Below, one piece after another: positions 1,796-56,570 of a stretch of 56,598 nt of DNA (the stretch's first letter is position 1; each line of letters begins with the position of its first letter). The DNA lies in the NCBI GenBank assembly GCA_964603485.1, contig CAZRVE010000001.1, forward strand, positions 42,342-98,939, written 5' to 3'. The DNA is from an uncultured Candidatus Saccharibacteria bacterium (GTDB taxonomy: Bacteria > Patescibacteriota > Minisyncoccia > Phycocordibacterales > Zambryskibacteraceae). A program made the position numbers and the translations under genes. The notes under the pieces are model-generated. The model did no database searches. It had not been told where the DNA came from and saw nothing but the letters and a program-made list of their open reading frames with translations.

Positions 1796-2785
1796 TTAGA
1801 ACTGCCCACTGTCCATAGTCTTCAAATAGTTTTCCACAACCCCTTCTACCTCCCTGCTATCTTTTGCGTCCATAAGAGTTTTCCGCAAATCAGCCGCTCC
1901 ACCCCAACCCGTCACATATGCTTTGTAATGCTTCTTCATCAATGCAAAACTCTTAATATCACCAAGAAGTTCTTCAAAAAGTTTTGTGTGCTCGACGAGA
2001 ACACGAAGTCTCTCTTCTAGAGTCGGATTCTTTTCAGAGAAAAGCCATGGATTGCCAAAGATTGCTCGTCCAAGCATCACGCCGTCGCAACCAGTTTCTT
2101 CTACTTTTCTTTTTGCATCAGCAATATCTACCGCATCACCATTTCCAAGAATGTAAGTTTCACTCTTCATATCGTTACGTATAACGACAGATTCTCTGAC
2201 ATGCTCCCAACGCGCGGGGACTTTAGACATTTCTTTTCGTGTCCGCGCATGAATAGTAAGTGCTACTGGTTTTGTCTCAAGAATTTTCGGAACCCAGGTT
2301 TCAAGTTCTATTGTATTAAATCCCACCCGAGTTTTTACAGAAACAGGAAGATGAAGCGCTCCCTGCTTTGCTGCGTAGATAACTTCCTGAGCCAGAGCTG
2401 GATCCTTAATGAGAGCCGCACCTGCGCCTTGTCGCTCAATCGCTTTATCAGGGCATCCCATATTTATATCAATACCATCAAATCCAAGTTCACGAGCAAG
2501 AATAGCCGCTTGCTCCATCATCTCTGGCTTTGAGGCAAAAAACTGAGCGACAATTGGGCGTTCCTCTTCGGTATATTCAAGGTCTTTCAAAAGCTTCCTC
2601 TTCCCCTCCTCTGGTGCGCGAACAAGACCATCAGCAGAAACAAACTCTGTCCACATCACATCGGGTTTGCCGTATTTTGCAATCACGCGACGAAAAGAGG
2701 CGTCCGTGACATCTGCCATTGGTGCTAATACAAAAAAAGGTTTTTTGAGATTATCCCAAAAACTCATAGAAAGTGACGATACCAC
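1796..2785 (-). CDS. dus: tRNA-dihydrouridine synthase (Dus family, TIM-barrel FMN enzyme)
   Basis: 329-aa ORF. Typical Dus sequence features (VLAPMADVTD, GFDGIDINMGCP, catalytic Cys context). Confidence 0.85.
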   Translation of the reverse strand: MVSSLSMSFWDNLKKPFFVLAPMADVTDASFRRVIAKYGKPDVMWTEFVSADGLVRAPEEGKRKLLKDLEYTEEERPIVAQFFASKPEMMEQAAILARELGFDGIDINMGCPDKAIERQGAGAALIKDPALAQEVIYAAKQGALHLPVSVKTRVGFNTIELETWVPKILETKPVALTIHARTRKEMSKVPARWEHVRESVVIRNDMKSETYILGNGDAVDIADAKRKVEETGCDGVMLGRAIFGNPWLFSEKNPTLEERLRVLVEHTKLFEELLGDIKSFALMKKHYKAYVTGWGGAADLRKTLMDAKDSREVEGVVENYLKTMDSGQF

Positions 2786-2826
2786 ACGAAACGGCCTTCC
2801 TCAATTCATATTGCCATCAGAACAAT

Positions 2827-2860
2827 GTAATTATCTGTGCCGATCGGCACAGATAATTAC
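2827..2860. repeat. 34-bp perfect palindrome, family 2 (GATC centre)
   Basis: gtaattatctgtgcc-gatc-ggcacagataattac. Imperfect copy at 15625-15662. Confidence 0.8.
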
Positions 2861-2901
2861 GGGCCAACCCCTCTTATTCCCCTTAAAAAACTTTAGGATA
2901 A

Positions 2902-5280
2902 CTACACAGACTGAAGCTCTCGTTCGGTAAACTCAACCCTTGATCCATGTGTGAGTGCCCCAGAGATAATCTTATCCGCGATAATTTTCTCAACAGTATC
3001 TTGAATAGCTCGGTTTAAAGGGCGTGCACCAAACTTTGGATCAGTCCCCTTCTCCACTAGAAAGTCTACGAGAGTATCATTTACTACAAGAGTCATCCCT
3101 CTATCCTTCAAACGCCATGCGAGCCGGCCAAGAAGAACCTTTGCGATTTCTTGTAAGTGCTCTTTCTTTAATGCGTGGAACAACACCACTCCGTCAAAGC
3201 GATTCAGAAGTTCTGGACGGAATAATTGATTGTGAACAATTTCATCAACAATCTCATTCTTTTTTTCAAGAAGGTTTTCTCCTCGTTCTGTTGCTTCAAA
3301 TATTTTTTCGCTCCCTGCATTAGAAGTTGCGACGATAAGCATATTTCTTAGAGAGACCTTACGGCCCATTGCATCAGAGAATACTCCTTCATCAAGAATT
3401 TGAAGGAATAGGTCGAGGACTCGAGATTCGGTCTTCTCAAATTCATCCAGAAGAAGTACGCCGTACTGATGTTCTCGTGCTAAAGATGCAAGAACTCCAG
3501 GGGTTTCAGAGTCATATCCTCCAATTAAACGTGTGAGCGCATCAGGAGTGTCGTATTCAGACATATCTAGACGAACCATGTGAGATTCTTTATTAAAAAA
3601 TATTTCAGCAAGCGCTTTTGCGGTTTCAGTTTTCCCTACTCCCGTAGGACCGAGAAAAAGAAAAGAACCCATAGGTCGATTAGGGCTACTTATGCCAGAT
3701 CGCGCTCGGCGCAATGCGTCAGAAACCATACGAATCGCTTCGTTCTGACCAATCACCCGCTCATGAAGAAGTGTTTCCAGATTTGTAAGCTTTACCCGCT
3801 CGCTGTCAGTAACGTCTCCTGTGGGAACACCTGTGCGAGTACCAACTACAGAAAGAATATCTTCTTTTGTGATTAACGATCGTCCTAAGGAGCGAACGTG
3901 AGCGATTGCTTCTACTAAAATATTACCTGCAGTGTTATACAGAGGCTCCCCCACAAAATATCTCCCCGCAGAGTCAATCGCACTCTTCACTGCAGGATAG
4001 GTAAAGACCACTTCCTCGTCGGTTTCAAGTTCTATTACGTGCTCGAGAAGCATGGCGGAAACCTCCTCATGATTTGAGCCTTCTATAAATACAGTATCAA
4101 AGTGTTGTAGTAGCTCTTTATTTCCTTCGAGGGAAGTATGGAAACTTTGAGTTTCAGAGAGGGCCACTATATGAAGCGTTGGTGAAACAAGGTACGGAGA
4201 AAGAAGTGAGGAAAGATCTGAACCAAGTGTCCTTGCTTGCATGAGAAGCGCATCGATATCAGGTATCACAAGTATCAGATTCCCCGCCTTCACCATATCA
4301 TCCAAAATACCAACAAGAAGACGCTCAAACCCTCCCTTCGTATCTTCAAGAGAGATAATTGCATCAAGAGACAGAACACGAAGCACCATATCGGAAAGAT
4401 GTCGTGGAGCTTCTTTTCGGGAAAGTCTGCGTGCAAAACCTTCCACCACTTCCATTTTCCCCGAACCTTCCTCACCCACAATTAGCGCATTGGCGCTTGT
4501 TGATTTTGAAAGAATGACCTCAAGATTACTTGTCTCTTTTGGATGAAGCTCTTGGCGCTCTGACAAAGAGAAACGGAGTGGGGTACTAAAACGTTCAAGC
4601 TTATATGCAGTTCCGTATGACCAAGACCTCCCGATTGGCTCCACCTCTTGCAATCGTTCTCGTGACCACCACCTTTCATTGGACAGAGACTCTCTTACCA
4701 ACGAAGAAACCCACCGAAAAGACTCCTCGAGAGTTTTGGCTGTGACAGAATGCGCGAGAAGAAAGTTCTCAAAAGAAGCATCGGCGGAAATGAGCCCCTC
4801 TAGATAAGATGCAACGAGATTAGGTGTATCGGAAAAAGAAAAACTTGATCCTCTCGCGACAAGTTTACGTGAAGAAAGAAACTCTCTAAGTGAAGCCCTT
4901 TCGATTCCCACACGCAAAAGAGCTTCTTGTCCGTAAAGAGATTCGATGAATCCCCTCACCGGATCAGTCTCGGAAGAAGAGAAAACAACAGAAGCAAGTT
5001 CATACGAATAACTACGCTCACCTTCGCGCGCAAATACATGCGAGTAGAAAAAAGCGTCAAGCGCGATGGTGATGAGAAGGAGTGAGCCGACAATAAAGAA
5101 AAGTCCGGAAGTTCCAAGAGCTGACTCCCACAGTAAGTCATAGGCCACAATAAAAGATAGCGCCAAGAGAACCCAGAGAACCTTAATGCAGATTTTCCTA
5201 ATCTTATGCGGAAAGACATGTTCAAGGGCTGCAACTCCTCGCCAGAAACCTAGTTTTTGTTTTAGGTCTAAGAAGCTCAT
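2902..5280 (-). CDS. Membrane-anchored ClpB/ClpA-like AAA+ ATPase, degenerate NBD1, intact NBD2, no obvious M-domain or ClpP loop
   Basis: 792 aa. N-terminal hydrophobic helices instead of Clp N-domain. D1 Walker A reads GEEGSGKM (T->M) and Walker B region reads ILVIPDID (DE lost). D2 has canonical GPTGVGKTE and LLLDEFEK. ATGA overlap with upstream gene. Confidence 0.75.
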   Translation of the reverse strand: MSFLDLKQKLGFWRGVAALEHVFPHKIRKICIKVLWVLLALSFIVAYDLLWESALGTSGLFFIVGSLLLITIALDAFFYSHVFAREGERSYSYELASVVFSSSETDPVRGFIESLYGQEALLRVGIERASLREFLSSRKLVARGSSFSFSDTPNLVASYLEGLISADASFENFLLAHSVTAKTLEESFRWVSSLVRESLSNERWWSRERLQEVEPIGRSWSYGTAYKLERFSTPLRFSLSERQELHPKETSNLEVILSKSTSANALIVGEEGSGKMEVVEGFARRLSRKEAPRHLSDMVLRVLSLDAIISLEDTKGGFERLLVGILDDMVKAGNLILVIPDIDALLMQARTLGSDLSSLLSPYLVSPTLHIVALSETQSFHTSLEGNKELLQHFDTVFIEGSNHEEVSAMLLEHVIELETDEEVVFTYPAVKSAIDSAGRYFVGEPLYNTAGNILVEAIAHVRSLGRSLITKEDILSVVGTRTGVPTGDVTDSERVKLTNLETLLHERVIGQNEAIRMVSDALRRARSGISSPNRPMGSFLFLGPTGVGKTETAKALAEIFFNKESHMVRLDMSEYDTPDALTRLIGGYDSETPGVLASLAREHQYGVLLLDEFEKTESRVLDLFLQILDEGVFSDAMGRKVSLRNMLIVATSNAGSEKIFEATERGENLLEKKNEIVDEIVHNQLFRPELLNRFDGVVLFHALKKEHLQEIAKVLLGRLAWRLKDRGMTLVVNDTLVDFLVEKGTDPKFGARPLNRAIQDTVEKIIADKIISGALTHGSRVEFTERELQSV

Positions 5281-22796: not shown

Positions 22797-23978
22797 TCAA
22801 AACATAATTTTTTTAAGCACGGAGACAGTAGCTTCAAGATCCTTTTTTGTAGTGCTTCTTCCTAAAGTAAATCGCACTGATGATTCCCCGCAACGAGAAT
22901 CCCCAAGTAAATCGACAACGTATGAACGAGTGTTTTCTGAAAGAGTCCTGCACGAACTCGATGCAGAAACCGCAATGCCTTTTGCATCAAAGCGCAACAC
23001 AAGCATTTCCCCCTCTTGGCCTGGAAAACAAATGTTTACATTATTTGGCAATCGATTTGAAAGTGAACCATTAAGAAGGGCCTTAGGATAAAGTTTTAAA
23101 ATTTTATTAATAAGAAAATCCCTCAGAGGAATAAGTCTTTTTGATTCTTTTAGAGCTTCTTGCTGTGCAATAAATAGAGCTTCTGCGAAAGCGTTTATCA
23201 AAGGAAGGTTTTCCGTCCCTGAACGCCTCCCATCTTCTTGACCACCACCAAGGATACGTGGAGAAATCTGAACTCCCCTTCTCACAAACAAAACCCCAAT
23301 TCCTTTTGGCCCATATATCTTAGAACCATCAAGTGTAAGTAGGTCTGCATGGAGATTCTCAACAGAAAGAGGCAGGTAGTTAGCCGCCTGACTTGCATCC
23401 ACGTGGAAATAAGGGAAATTTCCTAAGATCTTTTTTTGTTTTTTGAAAAAACGTATCGCCTTTGCAATCTCACGAATAGGTTGGATCGTGCCAATCTCAT
23501 TGTTCGCATACATGCAGGACACAAGTATTGTATTTTTTGTAAGCGCACTTGCCACATCCTCTACTCGAATAAAACCGTCTTGGTTTGGAATAAGGTAAGT
23601 TACTAATGCTCCCTGCCTCTCACACTCGCGGATAGCCTCAAGTACCGCAGGGTGCTCGAATGCAGAAGTAATAATGTGCGGTGTGCGAACCCCAAGAGAG
23701 AGTGCCGTTGCAAATGTTCCAAAAATCGCAAGATTGTCAGATTCTGTTCCGGTACCTGTAAACACAATTTCGTCCACATGAGCCTGAAGAGTCATTGCAA
23801 TCTTCTTTCGCGCTTCTTCAATCGCCTTCTGCACAAAAATACCCTCTTTATAAAGCGCAGACGGATTTGCAAATGTATGCACGAGAAAAGACGTGAGCTT
23901 TCTTAACACCCGCGGATCAATAGGAGTTGTACTTGCATGATCGAGAAAAATTCTCTTGCTCATTTTCAGTCTTTTCAT
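22797..23978 (-). CDS. Cysteine desulfurase (class V aminotransferase, IscS/NifS-like)
   Basis: PLP-lysine context DGSKIYGPKGIGVLFVR. Conserved C-terminal Cys region. Confidence 0.85.
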   Translation of the reverse strand: MKRLKMSKRIFLDHASTTPIDPRVLRKLTSFLVHTFANPSALYKEGIFVQKAIEEARKKIAMTLQAHVDEIVFTGTGTESDNLAIFGTFATALSLGVRTPHIITSAFEHPAVLEAIRECERQGALVTYLIPNQDGFIRVEDVASALTKNTILVSCMYANNEIGTIQPIREIAKAIRFFKKQKKILGNFPYFHVDASQAANYLPLSVENLHADLLTLDGSKIYGPKGIGVLFVRRGVQISPRILGGGQEDGRRSGTENLPLINAFAEALFIAQQEALKESKRLIPLRDFLINKILKLYPKALLNGSLSNRLPNNVNICFPGQEGEMLVLRFDAKGIAVSASSSCRTLSENTRSYVVDLLGDSRCGESSVRFTLGRSTTKKDLEATVSVLKKIMF

Positions 23979-26080: not shown

Positions 26081-26404
26081 ATGCCGTACCGAAAAGAAAA
26101 ACTACCTGAGACTCTTCAACACCTTGCCGCAGAATGGATTGAGCGAGAATCAAACCGCACCTCGCTTGTAACGGTAACTGGCTCTCGTATTTCAGAGAGC
26201 CAAAAACATGTTACGATTCTCTTTACTGTCTTTCCTGATTCTCAGGAAGCGGCAGTACTCGACCTTCTTAAGAGACGGATGAGCGACTTCGTAGCCTTTG
26301 TTGAGAAACATGCACGAATTGGCAGAATGCCTGAGATAGAGTTCGCAATTGATCTTGGGGAGAAGAATAGACAGAGAATTGATTTCCTGTTAAAAAATGA
26401 GTAA
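26081..26404 (+). CDS. rbfA: Ribosome-binding factor A
   Basis: 107 aa. RbfA-like pattern (TSLVTVTGSRISESQKHVTILFTVF...RMPEIEFAIDL..RIDFLL). Confidence 0.75.
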   Translation: MPYRKEKLPETLQHLAAEWIERESNRTSLVTVTGSRISESQKHVTILFTVFPDSQEAAVLDLLKRRMSDFVAFVEKHARIGRMPEIEFAIDLGEKNRQRIDFLLKNE

Positions 26405-26410
26405 AATCTT

Positions 26411-26485
26411 GGCGTAGTGGCGAAGTGGTAACGCAGCGGTCTGCAAAACCGCGACGCAGGGGTTCGATTCCCCTCTACGCCTCCA
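26411..26485 (+). tRNA. tRNA-Cys (anticodon GCA), encoded CCA
   Basis: Acceptor ggcgtag/ctacgcc, anticodon loop ctGCAaa, T-loop TTCGATT, discriminator U. Confidence 0.85.
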
Positions 26486-26523
26486 TCTTAAACCGGTAAT
26501 TTCTTTTACTGGAAAAGACGAAC

Positions 26524-26608
26524 GCCCGGGTGGTGAAATGGTATACACGGAGGACTTAAAATCCTTTGCCCGTTAAAAGGCGTGTGAGTTCGAGTCTCAC
26601 CCCGGGCA
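26524..26608 (+). tRNA. tRNA-Leu (anticodon TAA), long variable arm
   Basis: Acceptor gcccggg/cccgggc, anticodon loop acTTAAaat, T-loop TTCGAGT. Confidence 0.8.
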
Positions 26609-26710
26609 CTTGGTTTTACGTTTTCAATTGTTAATATGCATCCGTAACTGTTTTGGTAGGTATACAGATCGCGTGGTAGAAATAAGGCGTAGTAGGTAAA
26701 ATTAAAATAT

Positions 26711-26783
26711 GCATCCATAGCTCAGCTGGTAGAGCAGATCCCTCTTAAGGATAAGGTCGCAGGTTCGAACCCTGCTGGGTGCA
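26711..26783 (+). tRNA. tRNA-Lys (anticodon CTT)
   Basis: Acceptor gcatcca/tgggtgc, D-arm agctcagctggtagagc, anticodon loop ctCTTaa, T-loop TTCGAAC. Partial 5' duplicate (atatgcatcc) ~60 bp upstream. Confidence 0.8.
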
Positions 26784-26869
26784 CAAGATAGAAAAATATA
26801 AACTACTTTATATTTTTCGATACTTGTGCAGGTCGGAAGCATGTCCTGCTAGAAAGCAGGACAGCTGAG

Positions 26870-27110
26870 ACAGGGTCGTGAGATTTTTCTTGTGACGACA
26901 AGAAAAATACTCCTGACCACAAGTCTTTTGTGCAGGGCGCAGTGATGTTTTTGTTTGAGCGTAGCTCAAGGCAAAAACCACGAGCCGGGGTCGCGAGATT
27001 TTTCCGTCAGGAAAAATACTTGTGACCACACATGGGGACCAAAGTCATGTTTTGTGACCACAAGACTTCTGCGCATGGTGCACTGATATGTTTATTTGAA
27101 TGTATTTTTT
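26870..27110. repeat. Two tandem ~110-120-bp units with conserved hairpins (compensatory changes) in ORF-free inter-tRNA spacer
   Basis: Unit 1 ...gggtcgtgagatttttcttgtgacgacaagaaaaatactcctgaccacaag...tgcagggcgcagtgatgtttttgtttga. Unit 2 ...ggggtcgcgagatttttccgtcaggaaaaatacttgtgaccacaag...tgcgcatggtgcactgatatgtttatttga. Stems atttttcttgt/acaagaaaaat versus atttttcc/ggaaaaat. Confidence 0.6.
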
Positions 27111-27141
27111 ATTTTTCTATATATGCTAAAGTTCTACCCAT

Positions 27142-27222
27142 GCTGGGGTGGTGAAATGGCAGACACGCTTGCCTTAGGAGCAAGTGCCGTAAGGCGTGGA
27201 GGTTCAAGTCCTCTCCCCAGCA
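27142..27222 (+). tRNA. tRNA-Leu (anticodon TAG)
   Basis: Acceptor gctgggg/ccccagc, anticodon loop ccTTAGga, variable arm, T-loop TTCAAGT. TTGAAT-N16-TATATA promoter upstream. Confidence 0.8.
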
Positions 27223-27337
27223 CACGTAGTGTGCTTGAGCAAAACAATTGATTGTTTTGCGTGAGAGGACTTGAAAACCTTGAGTATCTCGGCTTGCCGG
27301 GACGAAAGGTGTACCGCTCCCGTAGGGAGAAAGATTC

Positions 27338-27358
27338 CTCTCCCCAGCACACGTTAAA
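27338..27358 (+). repeat. Direct repeat of tRNA-Leu(TAG) 3' end (cctctccccagcacacgt), part of a degenerate pseudo-tRNA fragment (att-like scar)
   Basis: Identical 19-21 nt to 27206-27226. Preceding ~60 nt (ggcttgccggg...gggagaaagattcctctcc) is tRNA-like but does not fold. Confidence 0.6.
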
Positions 27359-27395
27359 GATGCGAATTCTTTGAACTCGCAAGTGGTCAAAAGAG

Positions 27396-27433
27396 CCGAA
27401 ACAATTTGTTGCGGTCGCAACAAATTGTTTCGG
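27396..27433. repeat. Palindrome family 1, copy B (17-bp stem, loop GGTC)
   Basis: ccgaaacaatttgttgc-ggtc-gcaacaaattgtttcgg. Core identical to copy A at 821-864. Confidence 0.8.
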
Positions 27434-27489
27434 TTTACTACTCTCGTATCTGTATTCAGAAGTATGTCTTTTTATAATATAGGTAACTT

Positions 27490-27520
27490 GACTTTTTGAT
27501 ATTTTGTGATAAAATAGTTG
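27490..27520 (+). promoter_or_regulatory. Candidate sigma70-type promoter for SPFH gene
   Basis: TTGACT-N16-TAAAAT. Confidence 0.4.
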
Positions 27521-27571
27521 CAGAGATCCTTTTCATCACTACTCCTCTCGTACTCCCTACCGGAGAACCTC

Positions 27572-28666
27572 ATGATTATCATCGACTGGGTTTTCATCAT
27601 CTTACTGATTGGGTTCCTCCTGATCAGTTGGAGTTCGACTGTCGCATTTGTTCTTTTCCTCTTTCTCGTAGCGGTCTCTTTTCGATGGCTGGCGAGAATG
27701 GGTCGCTTCTTCCTTGCGGTACCGGTAAACTCCTTTGCACTTCTCACAAGAATTGCAAACAAAGATACCGATGTCACAAAGGGTGGTGGCGATGTGTTCG
27801 ATATCGCTCACTCCGTCCCAGGGAAGATCATCAACAAGGGGTCCACACCCGAAGACTTGATGTCTTGGGAATTCAAGGATGGCGCAGAAGAACGAGACAT
27901 TCTCAACTTCATCCTACTTCGATACTTAGGTATCCAGTGGATCGGAGTCTTCTCGACAGCTCGACTCAATGACGTCAAAGACTTACGTCTACGACGGAAT
28001 CCTGAAGAAGACGTGTACGGGGTGAAGGATCGAACGAAGGAAACTCCCTTTGTCTTTTTCTCAGAAAACCCCGCCGTTGTCTTGAAGGGGATCGAAACTT
28101 CCGATGGACTCGGCATCGACCTGCGCTTCACCTTCATAGCTGAACGTACTCGTCCGCTTTTCTCCGTGGTCCGAGTCGCCGACGTCTATGCGGTGGTGAC
28201 AACGAAGGTTCAGGAAGCAGTCATCACCGTTACCGGAGACTACTCGGCACATGAAATCGTCAAAGGTAAGGACAGCAGCAAGATCAAGAAGAAAATTGTC
28301 GCTGTCCTTGAAGACCCCAATTTCATCGAAGAGGTTCTCCGAGCAACAGGCCTGACTCTCTCTGAAATCGACCTCAGCGATATCAATTTCGATGAGAAAA
28401 CCCGATTAATCATCGAGACGCAGGCTGCGGCAGAAGCGGAAGCTCAGCGTCTCAGGGTTGAAGCTGCTGGTAAAAGGGATGCAAAACTCTTGGCGGTTGA
28501 AGCCGATAAGGCAGAAATCGACCAGGTCATCCTCCCTCTCGCAAACCAGCCTGGTGCAGCGGCAATTATGGCTGCAAAAGCGTATCGTGACAACACAACA
28601 GTTACCACGTACGCGCCAGGAGGAAATGCCGGCCTCCTCATCAATCCAACAGAACCGAAAAAGTAG
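27572..28666 (+). CDS. SPFH/band-7 (stomatin/HflK-like) membrane protein
   Basis: N-terminal TM helices, SPFH-like core, then Ala/Glu-rich coiled-coil ETQAAAEAEAQRLRVEAAGKRDAKLLAVEADKAE. Start at ATG 27572 with GGAGA SD. Confidence 0.65.
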   Translation: MIIIDWVFIILLIGFLLISWSSTVAFVLFLFLVAVSFRWLARMGRFFLAVPVNSFALLTRIANKDTDVTKGGGDVFDIAHSVPGKIINKGSTPEDLMSWEFKDGAEERDILNFILLRYLGIQWIGVFSTARLNDVKDLRLRRNPEEDVYGVKDRTKETPFVFFSENPAVVLKGIETSDGLGIDLRFTFIAERTRPLFSVVRVADVYAVVTTKVQEAVITVTGDYSAHEIVKGKDSSKIKKKIVAVLEDPNFIEEVLRATGLTLSEIDLSDINFDEKTRLIIETQAAAEAEAQRLRVEAAGKRDAKLLAVEADKAEIDQVILPLANQPGAAAIMAAKAYRDNTTVTTYAPGGNAGLLINPTEPKK

Positions 28667-41655: not shown

Positions 41656-41835
41656 AATAACTATTTTATCACGAACAAAATATCGAGCGAGGGTTCTCCT
41701 TCTCAAACCTCGCGCAGTTCCAATCACATTGGAACGAGCGGAGTAAATCTTTAGTAAAAGATTATACGTGTTTGAGAAGCAGAACCCGAGTGAGCCCTTG
41801 TGTCAAAGGGGAGCTCCATACTACAATCTACGCAA

Positions 41836-56486: not shown

Positions 56487-56570
56487 TTTACATCAATTTG
56501 CATACCTACCGAAACAGCTAACTACCCTTTTACATCAATTTGCATACCTACCAAAAGCTAACCGGCCTCC
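56487..56570. repeat. Two tandem ~45-bp direct repeats in the tRNA-Val upstream leader, each ending in a copy of the tRNA 5' start (gctaac)
   Basis: ctttacatcaatttgcatacctaccgaaacagctaac / ttttacatcaatttgcatacctaccaaaagctaacc. Confidence 0.7.

Follow-up and report, generated by a model that had tools for sequence, protein, structure and literature searches.

Structured repeats with a closing helix copied from the neighbouring tRNA occupy a tRNA spacer in a Patescibacteria chromosome

Introduction

What fills the long, hairpin-dense interval between two neighbouring tRNA genes in a bacterial lineage with very small genomes? The question is raised by a stretch of 56,598 nt (the window, in what follows) from an uncultured Candidatus Saccharibacteria bacterium (assembly GCA_964603485.1, contig CAZRVE010000001.1), in which the genes for tRNA-Lys(CTT) (26711-26784; ARAGORN, and 66.8 bits with the Rfam tRNA model) and tRNA-Leu(TAG) (27142-27223; ARAGORN and the Rfam tRNA model) are separated by a spacer of 357 nt (26785-27141), the first gene ending at 26783/26784. 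Coordinates refer to the plus strand of the window unless stated. Patescibacteria, of the candidate phyla radiation, are a huge and mostly uncultured branch of the bacteria with tiny genomes, and to our knowledge almost nothing has been learnt of their non-coding RNA and small mobile DNA. A preliminary description of the spacer, drawn from its sequence, had seen in it tandem units that could encode small RNAs or be reiterated promoter or leader modules of the tRNA operon.

Our analysis resolves the spacer into a short array of structured repeats in tandem, members of a large family residing in the 3' flanks of tRNA genes of Patescibacteria. The membership of this family, and the copying of the closing helix of each unit from the 3' end of the neighbouring tRNA, had both been missed by the preliminary description. 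The family is apparently uncatalogued; it lies outside Rfam 15, and we found no description of it in the searchable literature.

Results

Two tandem units belong to a large structured family

The spacer indeed lacks a credible open reading frame (ORF), as had been claimed: its ORFs are mechanical ones only, of 31-73 residues, and none has a Pfam match. The array within it is made up of two intact tandem units (A, ~26822-26924, and B, ~26926-27032), one decayed fragment and one truncated third unit. The repetition, too, had been recognised correctly, the local alignment of units A and B scoring 53 against 16.7 ± 2.4 for shuffled sequences, and the blocks common to the two correspond to the direct-repeat families D1, D4 and D7. 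Tandem Repeats Finder does not detect the units because of the indels between them, and the motifs that they share have no other occurrence in the 56.6-kb window. Unit A folds with an energy of -49.4 kcal/mol (z = -6.8 against shuffled sequence) and unit B with -47.0 kcal/mol (z = -6.0), compared with -36.0 kcal/mol for the opposite strand of unit B; the plus strand folds better than the minus strand.

A search of the spacer with nhmmer against loci anchored on the gene for IF2 returned matches with E-values as low as 5e-12, which lie in the same tRNA cluster in genomes that have an IF2 of only ~50-57% identity. Nine short-form copies were aligned and their structure, of 28 base pairs, was written by hand to give a covariance model, R1. 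This model finds 44 matches in the window together with 80 IF2-anchored Patescibacteria loci (identified below by L numbers where they have to be told apart), and 46 in 80 metagenome contigs that had been retrieved by a gapped core pattern; it has no match in 58 viral contigs picked by the core pattern. A joint alignment was made of the 77 matches with E <= 1e-4 from Patescibacteria genome and metagenome contigs.

The fold that emerges is a three-way junction on the tRNA-sense strand, in which a closing helix (P1) carries an arm composed of a short helix (P2), an internal loop (GGA opposite GA) and a variable hairpin (P3), and a second, long arm (P4). The 5' half of the consensus reads P1 5' strand, (GAA)A, G-N-C (P2), GGA, P3 (often with a GACG loop) and GA, and the 3' half G-N'-C (P2), RG, P4 and P1 3' strand. 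The consensus of P4 is GGUCG, a correlated mismatch, a helix of 10-30 bp, a bulged A on the 3' side and UGACC, a conserved G-U being held in the basal GGUCG/UGACC; its length and internal motifs vary widely among subfamilies. The minimum-energy folds that ViennaRNA gives for units A and B are exactly this consensus structure.

Across the 77 copies, 93.7% of cells hold a base pair, a value somewhat inflated because the alignment was fitted to the model, yet one from which the controls stay far off (66.2% for shuffled alignments and 35-46% for slid partners). Cells changed on both sides number 535, compared with 151 in shuffled alignments and 53-121 with slid partners, and the covariation score is 0.645 (0.18 and 0.06-0.12, respectively). 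Double-sided changes occur in 27 of the 28 pairs, including all six of P1; the middle pair of the 3-bp P2 is C-G in 35 copies, G-C in 18, A-U in 15 and U-A in 6. The analysis of homologous copies that the preliminary description had called for thus bears out covariation, although not where it had been placed: the supposed compensatory changes between the central hairpins of the two units are in fact a longer and a shorter apical extension of P4, and true covariation is visible only across the family. G-T pairs outnumber A-C pairs by 140 to 34, mostly owing to the G-U of P4, kept in 68 of 72 copies, and to the adjacent position, which is G-C or G-U, and this excess indicates that the fold belongs to the tRNA-sense strand. 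Compensatory helices and a strand-specific G-U excess are the generic marks of a structured RNA, and on this comparative evidence the units appear to be under selection for a fold of the single strand, in keeping with the small structured RNAs that had been one of the earlier suggestions.

Anatomy of the array

Unit A (26822-26924; R1 52.3 bits, E = 7e-14, or 47.5 bits with filters off) is a complete element of the kind that we call type 1. Its P1 is formed by 26822-26827 and 26919-26924, its P2 (GUC/GAC) by 26832-26834 and 26869-26871, and the internal loop places GGA (26835-26837) opposite GA (26867-26868). P3 (26838-26866) is the further hairpin, tgtcctgct-agaa-agcaggaca, that had been noticed in the spacer, and P4 (26874-26918; GGUCG...UGACC) has its bulged A at 26909.

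Unit B (26926-27032; R1 36.8-40.5 bits) is also a complete type-1 element. Its P1 is weak, pairing UUGUG (26928-26932) with CACA (27027-27030), of which C27027 is also used in P4; P2 (26936-26938 and 26984-26986) is GGC/GCC and so covaries with that of unit A, and P4 (26989-27027) has its bulged A at 27018. P3 (26942-26981) bears an extra apical hairpin, GAGC-GUA-GCUC. The fragment gagcgtagctcaagg, which had been called tRNA-5'-like, is this hairpin; no tRNA is detected in the spacer by ARAGORN or by the Rfam tRNA model.

Downstream of unit B, the decayed fragment (27033-27066) can be read as a remnant of P4 (GGGGACC...UGACC) followed by a P1 3' strand, ACAAG; this is a reading of the sequence, together with the repeat families D6 and D15, and the fragment has no R1 match. 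The truncated third unit (27055-27104) is a copy of the junction between units A and B, 78% identical to 26914-26963 over 50 nt (family D1), and contains in order the end of P4, a P1 3' strand, the P1 5' strand of a next unit, P2 and the start of P3.

Upstream of unit A is a long hairpin, H0 (26781-26829; -18.5 kcal/mol, z = -8.2; inverted repeat I6). Its outer stem pairs GCACAAG, which is the 3' end of tRNA-Lys with its trailer, with CTTGTGC, and encloses an inner A/T stem (26788-26821) closed by the tetraloop CUAC at 26803-26806. The 3' arm of H0 (ACTTGTG, 26822-26828) doubles as the P1 5' strand of unit A, so that H0 and the P1 of unit A are mutually exclusive. A hairpin with a CURC tetraloop stands ahead of 20 of 75 family members, compared with 0.3% of background windows.

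The closing helix is copied from the host tRNA

A tRNA gene lies upstream on the same strand for 71 of 89 matches, typically 10-80 nt off, and three further matches adjoin an inverted tRNA-Lys; most of those without a tRNA lie at the edge of a contig and still show a tRNA 3' fragment there. The hosts comprise at least 15 tRNA species (Cys, Leu with five anticodons, Lys, Trp, Arg with five anticodons, Asn, Gly, Val, Ser, Pro, Ala, Thr, Tyr, Asp and Met), and each of the subfamilies defined by the core is found behind many of them.

The sequence of P1 is not its own: the 3' part of the tRNA upstream is present as an inverted copy in the 5' strand and as a direct copy in the 3' strand, and in most relatives the part copied extends from T-loop position 54/56 to just past the discriminator. 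Read in reverse complement, the 5' strand corresponds to the tRNA from T54 on, and it always has two A's opposite T54/T55. The direct copy, which follows P4, starts at C56 of the T-loop and passes the discriminator by 1-8 nt; it is without the T54/T55 positions, so that the P1 5' strand matches the real tRNA 2 nt further than it matches this copy. That the 5' strand is an inverted and not a forward copy follows from L147, where the T-loop, TTCAATT, is not palindromic and the flank reads AATTGAA. In 17 of 54 cases the downstream copy agrees with C56-N73 at all 18 positions, and in 8 more only its first ~10 nt, the part paired in P1, still match, as would be expected of a fresh duplication decaying wherever it is unpaired.

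Both units of the window belong to a second (Lys) subtype, in which the part copied consists of the last acceptor bases, the discriminator and the trailer. Here GCACAAG (26781-26787) is followed by its complement CTTGTGC (26823-26829) and by the copy CACAAG (26918-26923); the complement can pair either backwards, making with the tRNA 3' end the long hairpin described above, or forwards, making P1. The flanking direct repeats are of 5-7 nt in the Lys subtype and reach 19-29 nt in others, and are always the tRNA 3' end. The distance from the end of the element to the next tRNA is 0-12 nt in relatives, and 0-7 nt in L058, L060 and L034.

Copies elsewhere and a second type of element

Orthologues of the four-tRNA cluster to which the spacer belongs contain 0-4 copies each, behind different tRNAs in different genomes, and there is no type-1 copy in the clusters of L017 and L019. 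In L147 and L155 the units are perfect tandem repeats, in L037 there is a chimera of the type-1 element and the type-2 element described below, and in L016 a single tRNA is followed by a type-2 and a type-1 element in tandem, both of which terminate in the same 19-20-nt tRNA copy. L173 has two copies, located behind different tRNAs, with P4 arms that are nearly identical and with P2 and P3 that differ.

Some copies are found away from tRNA genes. In L059 a copy (3167-3248, in ORF 2124-3491, minus strand) lies antisense and in frame within the gene for cysteine desulfurase, to which it adds ~26 residues that are absent from the orthologues in the window (22797-23978) and in L037. In L037 and L157, copies with a long, perfect closing helix stand free, just upstream of genes. 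The window has a third family member, of a variant subfamily (GCGCA...GAGCG), at 41691-41778 (28.6 bits and E = 4e-7 with R1, filters off), free-standing between pth and the gene for signal peptidase; it is in sense orientation just upstream of the latter and divergent from pth, and its closing helix of 17-18 bp is unrelated to any tRNA. No copies of the family were found in phage and plasmid collections.

Immediately behind tRNA-Leu(TAG), the host in this case, is an element of type 2 (27224-27354; repeat D8, inverted repeat I8), for which nhmmer and an alignment show relatives. Its core, unlike that of type 1, is a pair of hairpins linked by GUAC and has a GUA/UGUA loop. The element contains a 13-nt perfect inverted copy of the T-loop and T-stem of tRNA-Leu (GAGAGGACTTGAA, 27263-27275) and ends in a 19-nt exact copy of the tRNA-Leu 3' end (TCCTCTCCCCAGCACACGT, 27336-27354). 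Relatives are found by nhmmer behind other tRNAs in at least eight further loci (L007, L016, L019, L026, L037, L040, L181 and L243). The fold of the single sequence is marginal (z = -1.7). Type 2 is thus a second kind of element, with the same flank logic as type 1.

Two observations concern the order of the tRNA genes themselves. The tRNA-Lys gene alone is inverted in an otherwise co-oriented four-tRNA cluster in L005 (6406-6479), L002, L008 and L022, and in L007 it is the adjacent element that is inverted; this suggests flipping by recombination between inverted repeats made by the elements. In L152 (13880-14060) the 5' two-thirds of tRNA-Arg(TCT), as far as the T-stem, is fused to a type-1 core and the 3' end of another tRNA, and an intact tRNA-Arg(TCT) lies 24 nt further downstream. 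We take the fusion as evidence of rearrangement at the elements.

Comparison with catalogued RNAs and repeats

With Rfam 15 only the flanking tRNAs reach the gathering threshold. At E <= 10 the region 26300-27600 gives chance-level matches to small nucleolar RNAs (snoRNAs) and microRNAs only, at 15-21 bits against cut-offs of 39-63, and no match to the ribozyme models; six related loci give the same picture. Hammerhead, kink-turn, RNase P CR-I, signal recognition particle RNA and TIGR arrays do not fit the junction, and neither the Rfam scan nor PMC12045711 supports the likeness. A tRNA gene, pseudogene or split tRNA was rejected, there being no cloverleaf in 26785-27141 with ARAGORN or Rfam, and the left flank being the reverse complement of a T-loop; the 'tRNA-like' string GAGCGTAGCTC forms the end of the P3 hairpin of unit B. 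The sequence TGTGACCACA was considered as a protein operator and dropped, since the motif is the P4/P1 junction, and a viral origin was discarded, all 58 viral contigs with the core pattern being chance matches.

Among repeats of DNA, a miniature inverted-repeat transposable element (MITE) with conserved terminal inverted repeats does not agree with P1 strands that differ in every copy and follow the local tRNA, nor does a fixed-length target duplication agree with direct repeats that vary as described. Repetitive extragenic palindromes (REPs) and REPINs are based on an imperfect palindrome of 20-40 nt that has a conserved 5' tetranucleotide, and go with a gene for a RAYT (Y1) transposase in the genome; the element here is a three-way junction of 90-150 nt, and no Y1 transposase is present among the 25 larger ORFs of the window examined with Pfam. 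The element shares the bulged A of P4 with integron attC sites; the consensus has no RYYYAAC/GTTRRRY boxes and there are no cassette ORFs, nor an integrase among the 25 ORFs. As in attL/attR pairs the element is flanked by direct repeats of a tRNA 3' end, which in the type-1 units of the window amount to GCACAAG/CACAAG only, and the mere 100-170 nt between the repeats are structured and non-coding, with neither integrase nor cargo. As routes of insertion, staggered-cut duplication, folded-circle integration, fold-back priming and retro-insertion were considered. Each explains some features and fails on at least one, and none covers both the inverted and the direct tRNA copy.

Genomic context

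The window is a housekeeping stretch of a Patescibacteria chromosome of the Parcubacteria/Paceibacteria type. Its genes include those for Dus, ClpB/ClpC-like ATPases, SerRS, DprA, TopA, RelA/SpoT, ParB, MiaA, cysteine desulfurase, a DUF4446 protein, a short IF2, RbfA, GyrA, S1, FtsA, FtsZ and thioredoxin reductase. The nearest IF2 among 185,579 species genomes is only 59% identical, and the top matches are all from metagenome-assembled genomes of Patescibacteria. The gene for RbfA is followed by tRNA-Cys, tRNA-Leu(TAA), tRNA-Lys(CTT), the spacer and tRNA-Leu(TAG), and this four-tRNA cluster 3' of IF2-RbfA is kept in many relatives, with spacers there of 3 nt to >2 kb.

Other repeated sequences lie near tRNA genes of the window. 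At 26633-26659, 73 nt upstream of the real tRNA-Lys, there is a partial direct copy of the 5' end of this tRNA (AATATGCATCCGTAAC...GGTAG), 78% identical to 26706-26732, indicating that 5'-end fragments are duplicated upstream in addition to 3' ends downstream. Upstream of tRNA-Val on the minus strand (56487-56565) are two tandem units of ~38 nt, each opening like the 5'/D-arm region of the tRNA itself (GGTTAGCT...GGTAG) and continuing with GTATGCAAATTGATGTAAA; a similar string, GGTAGGTATAC, also occurs upstream of tRNA-Lys. The units could be a promoter module or another tRNA-templated repeat. On the 3' side of the tRNA cluster (27396-27433) there is a perfect palindrome of 18 bp (CCGAAACAATTTGTTGCG / CGCAACAAATTGTTTCGG) with a loop of 2 nt, which is scored as a minus-strand terminator and probably ends the operon in both directions.

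Discussion

How did the units come to be where they are? We lean, with confidence a little above even, towards a duplicative, selfish structured repeat, the reasons being the sporadic presence of the element, the perfect tandem arrays, the chimeric and decayed copies and the in-frame copy in the cysteine desulfurase gene. On loose criteria the family resembles MITEs and Rickettsia palindromic elements (RPEs): it is small, non-coding, multicopy (77 confident copies) and patchy, and it reaches new sites that include a coding gene. Like RPEs, REP and bacterial interspersed mosaic elements (BIMEs), Correia elements and MITEs, the repeats are of ~100-150 nt, strongly self-complementary and sporadic, with no transposase of their own; they can lie in frame in protein genes, and they occur in a reduced-genome, host-dependent lineage. 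They differ from RPE, REP, Correia and MITE sequences in that the ends, P1, are not conserved but are copied from the neighbouring tRNA, in that the core forms a three-way junction whose helices covary as in RNA and whose junction bases are conserved, in that a position just 3' of a tRNA, on the strand of that tRNA, is common to nearly all copies, and in that the direct repeats are copies of 6-29 nt of a tRNA 3' end and not short fixed target duplications.

As a selfish repeat, the array might work as follows. The units would be transcribed by read-through within the tRNA precursor and released by the enzymes that process tRNA ends, through cleavage at the 3' end of tRNA-Lys on one side and at the 5' end of tRNA-Leu on the other. 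The flanking direct repeats would let arrays expand and contract, and new copies would occasionally arise at other tRNAs or elsewhere; the fold of the single strand may be what selection, or the machinery of propagation, sees.

Several results weigh against a selfish repeat. There is no transposase, integrase or reverse transcriptase near any copy examined or among the 25 larger ORFs of the window, and no pair of an empty and a filled site was found in close relatives, mobility being read from the pattern of copies; a look-up of strain variants of the locus by exact protein returned one contig of 1.8 kb that stops before the tRNAs and otherwise none. The P1 'terminal inverted repeats' are, unlike those of classical MITEs, not conserved among copies, and the strength of the pairing is subject to the fitting of the alignment mentioned above. 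Finally, the core nucleotides are ~85-90% identical between genomes whose IF2 is 50-59% identical and elements are present at the same four tRNAs in many species, both of which would also fit an RNA useful to the host.

A second and distinctly more tentative reading is that of a tRNA-coupled mobile or regulatory RNA element of a new kind, whose closing helix is templated on arrival from the host tRNA; the templating may consist of an inverted copy made from T-loop position 54 and a direct copy from 56 through the discriminator. If this is true, the templated helix would imply either a mechanism of insertion in which the tRNA gene or its precursor is read, or an RNA able to sense or control the maturation of its host tRNA, possibly by way of a new ribozyme core.

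The host-useful RNA mentioned above would act in cis within the tRNA precursor, serving the maturation of the tRNA 3' end as a switch or folding insulator, which we consider rather unlikely. In such a switch the anti strand, the 5' strand of P1, would pair either with the 3' part of the real tRNA (in the long form of H0 or with the T-arm) or with the downstream copy as a decoy (P1), and the three-way junction would decide between them, perhaps by binding a protein or a ligand. This would make sense of an anti strand that is complementary to the real tRNA, T54/T55 included, over 2 nt more than to the decoy, of the mutually exclusive GCACAAG/CTTGTGC (H0, long form) and ACTTGTG/CACAAGT (P1) pairings in the window, of the same strand being used in 71 of the 74 matches with a neighbouring tRNA, and of junction nucleotides kept across deeply diverged genomes. 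It does not sit well with the many orthologous tRNA clusters that have no element, with a copy number of 0-4 that includes decayed, chimeric and tandem copies, with an antisense copy within a coding gene, or with two or more unrelated cores (type 1 and type 2) having the same flank logic; moreover, transcription reaches the tRNA first, which should already be folded by the time the anti strand is made. There is a resemblance to RNAs derived from tRNA precursors, such as the 3' external transcribed spacer of E. coli leuZ and the tRNA-snoRNA dicistrons of plants, in the position in a tRNA trailer or between tRNAs, and in that expression is possible without a promoter of its own, with release by cuts of the RNase Z, RNase P or RNase E type. 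Those RNAs are however single-locus and lineage-specific and act by base pairing or as snoRNAs, whereas here a multicopy three-way junction has a closing stem that mimics the 3' end of the host tRNA.

A new small self-cleaving ribozyme, or a processing signal, that cuts tRNA precursors or releases itself and rides on selfish repeats, is improbable in our estimation. In contrast to the variable closing helix, some twelve nucleotides of the junction that are unpaired or in non-canonical pairs are conserved (A-G, GGA/GA, GG, a G-U, the correlated mismatch and the bulged A), and the sporadic, multicopy and tandem distribution is typical of hammerhead and twister; with no Rfam ribozyme model matching, a ribozyme here would be of a new class. 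The general likeness extends to hatchet and pistol, which like hammerhead and twister are compact junctions of several helices with variable closing stems and few conserved unpaired bases, patchy, associated with repeats and sometimes tandem, but the junction sequences are different from every known core. No cleavage-site signature could be recognised, the conserved nucleotides might equally be a protein-binding site, and P4 varies widely among subfamilies.

Still less probable, to our mind, are scars at the DNA level, or miniature passengers, of site-specific integration into tRNA genes, in which the direct repeats would be of the attL/attR type and the core an attachment-site arm or a folded single-strand site such as integron attC or the attP of CTX phage. 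The repeats do extend from the T-loop to just past the tRNA, the segment that many integrases use, and the order X, hairpin, inverted X, core, X is the one expected from insertion of a small circle with a folded X'/X stem. With tRNA attachment sites and folded single-strand sites (attC, CTX attP) the family has in common the direct repeat of the tRNA 3' end from the T-loop, the tandem arrays, a structure kept more than the sequence, on one strand only, and an order of X, inverted X, loop and X that agrees with the trace expected of a folded hairpin site. The whole 'island' is, by contrast, only 100-170 nt long, with no integrase or other recombinase gene nearby and without the R''/R' boxes (RYYYAAC/GTTRRRY) of an attC core, and neither the 58 candidate viral contigs nor the phage and plasmid collections have a copy. 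One core family, moreover, serves at least 15 tRNAs, each with matching copies, and an unrelated type-2 core uses the same flanks; an element that carried its own tRNA end could not serve so many tRNAs with local copies.

Reiterated promoter or leader modules of the tRNA operon, an early suggestion prompted by units lying between tRNA genes, we hold to be very unlikely indeed, since the conserved part is a three-way junction of helices with compensatory changes and not a pair of -35/-10 hexamers, a consensus scan finds no promoter-like site in 26785-27090 and none inside the units, the possible weak promoter of tRNA-Leu(TAG) read from the sequence just before it (TTGAAT-16 nt-TATATA, 27096-27123, absent from the scan output) is outside the repeated units, the elements of L058, L060 and L034 leave no room for a promoter before the next tRNA, and there are copies inside a coding gene and free-standing.

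Insertions at stable-RNA genes have precedents in Patescibacteria, where intervening sequences in the rRNA genes and group I introns in tRNA genes (PMC13011429) are described. Our elements are alike in lineage, in being structured RNA at stable-RNA genes and in their patchy occurrence; they differ from the tRNA introns in lying 3' of the mature tRNA and not in the anticodon loop, in their size of ~100 nt, in having no group I core and in leaving the tRNA gene intact. They account for long, hairpin-dense spacers and for the stray fragments of tRNA ends that confuse annotation and break assemblies. A closing stem custom-made from the 3' end of the host tRNA is a regularity that calls for a mechanism, and there is a substantial chance that the mechanism behind the family is new. 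If so, it would be either a new route of DNA insertion or duplication at tRNA genes or an RNA that acts on its own tRNA precursor, and either would be new biology.

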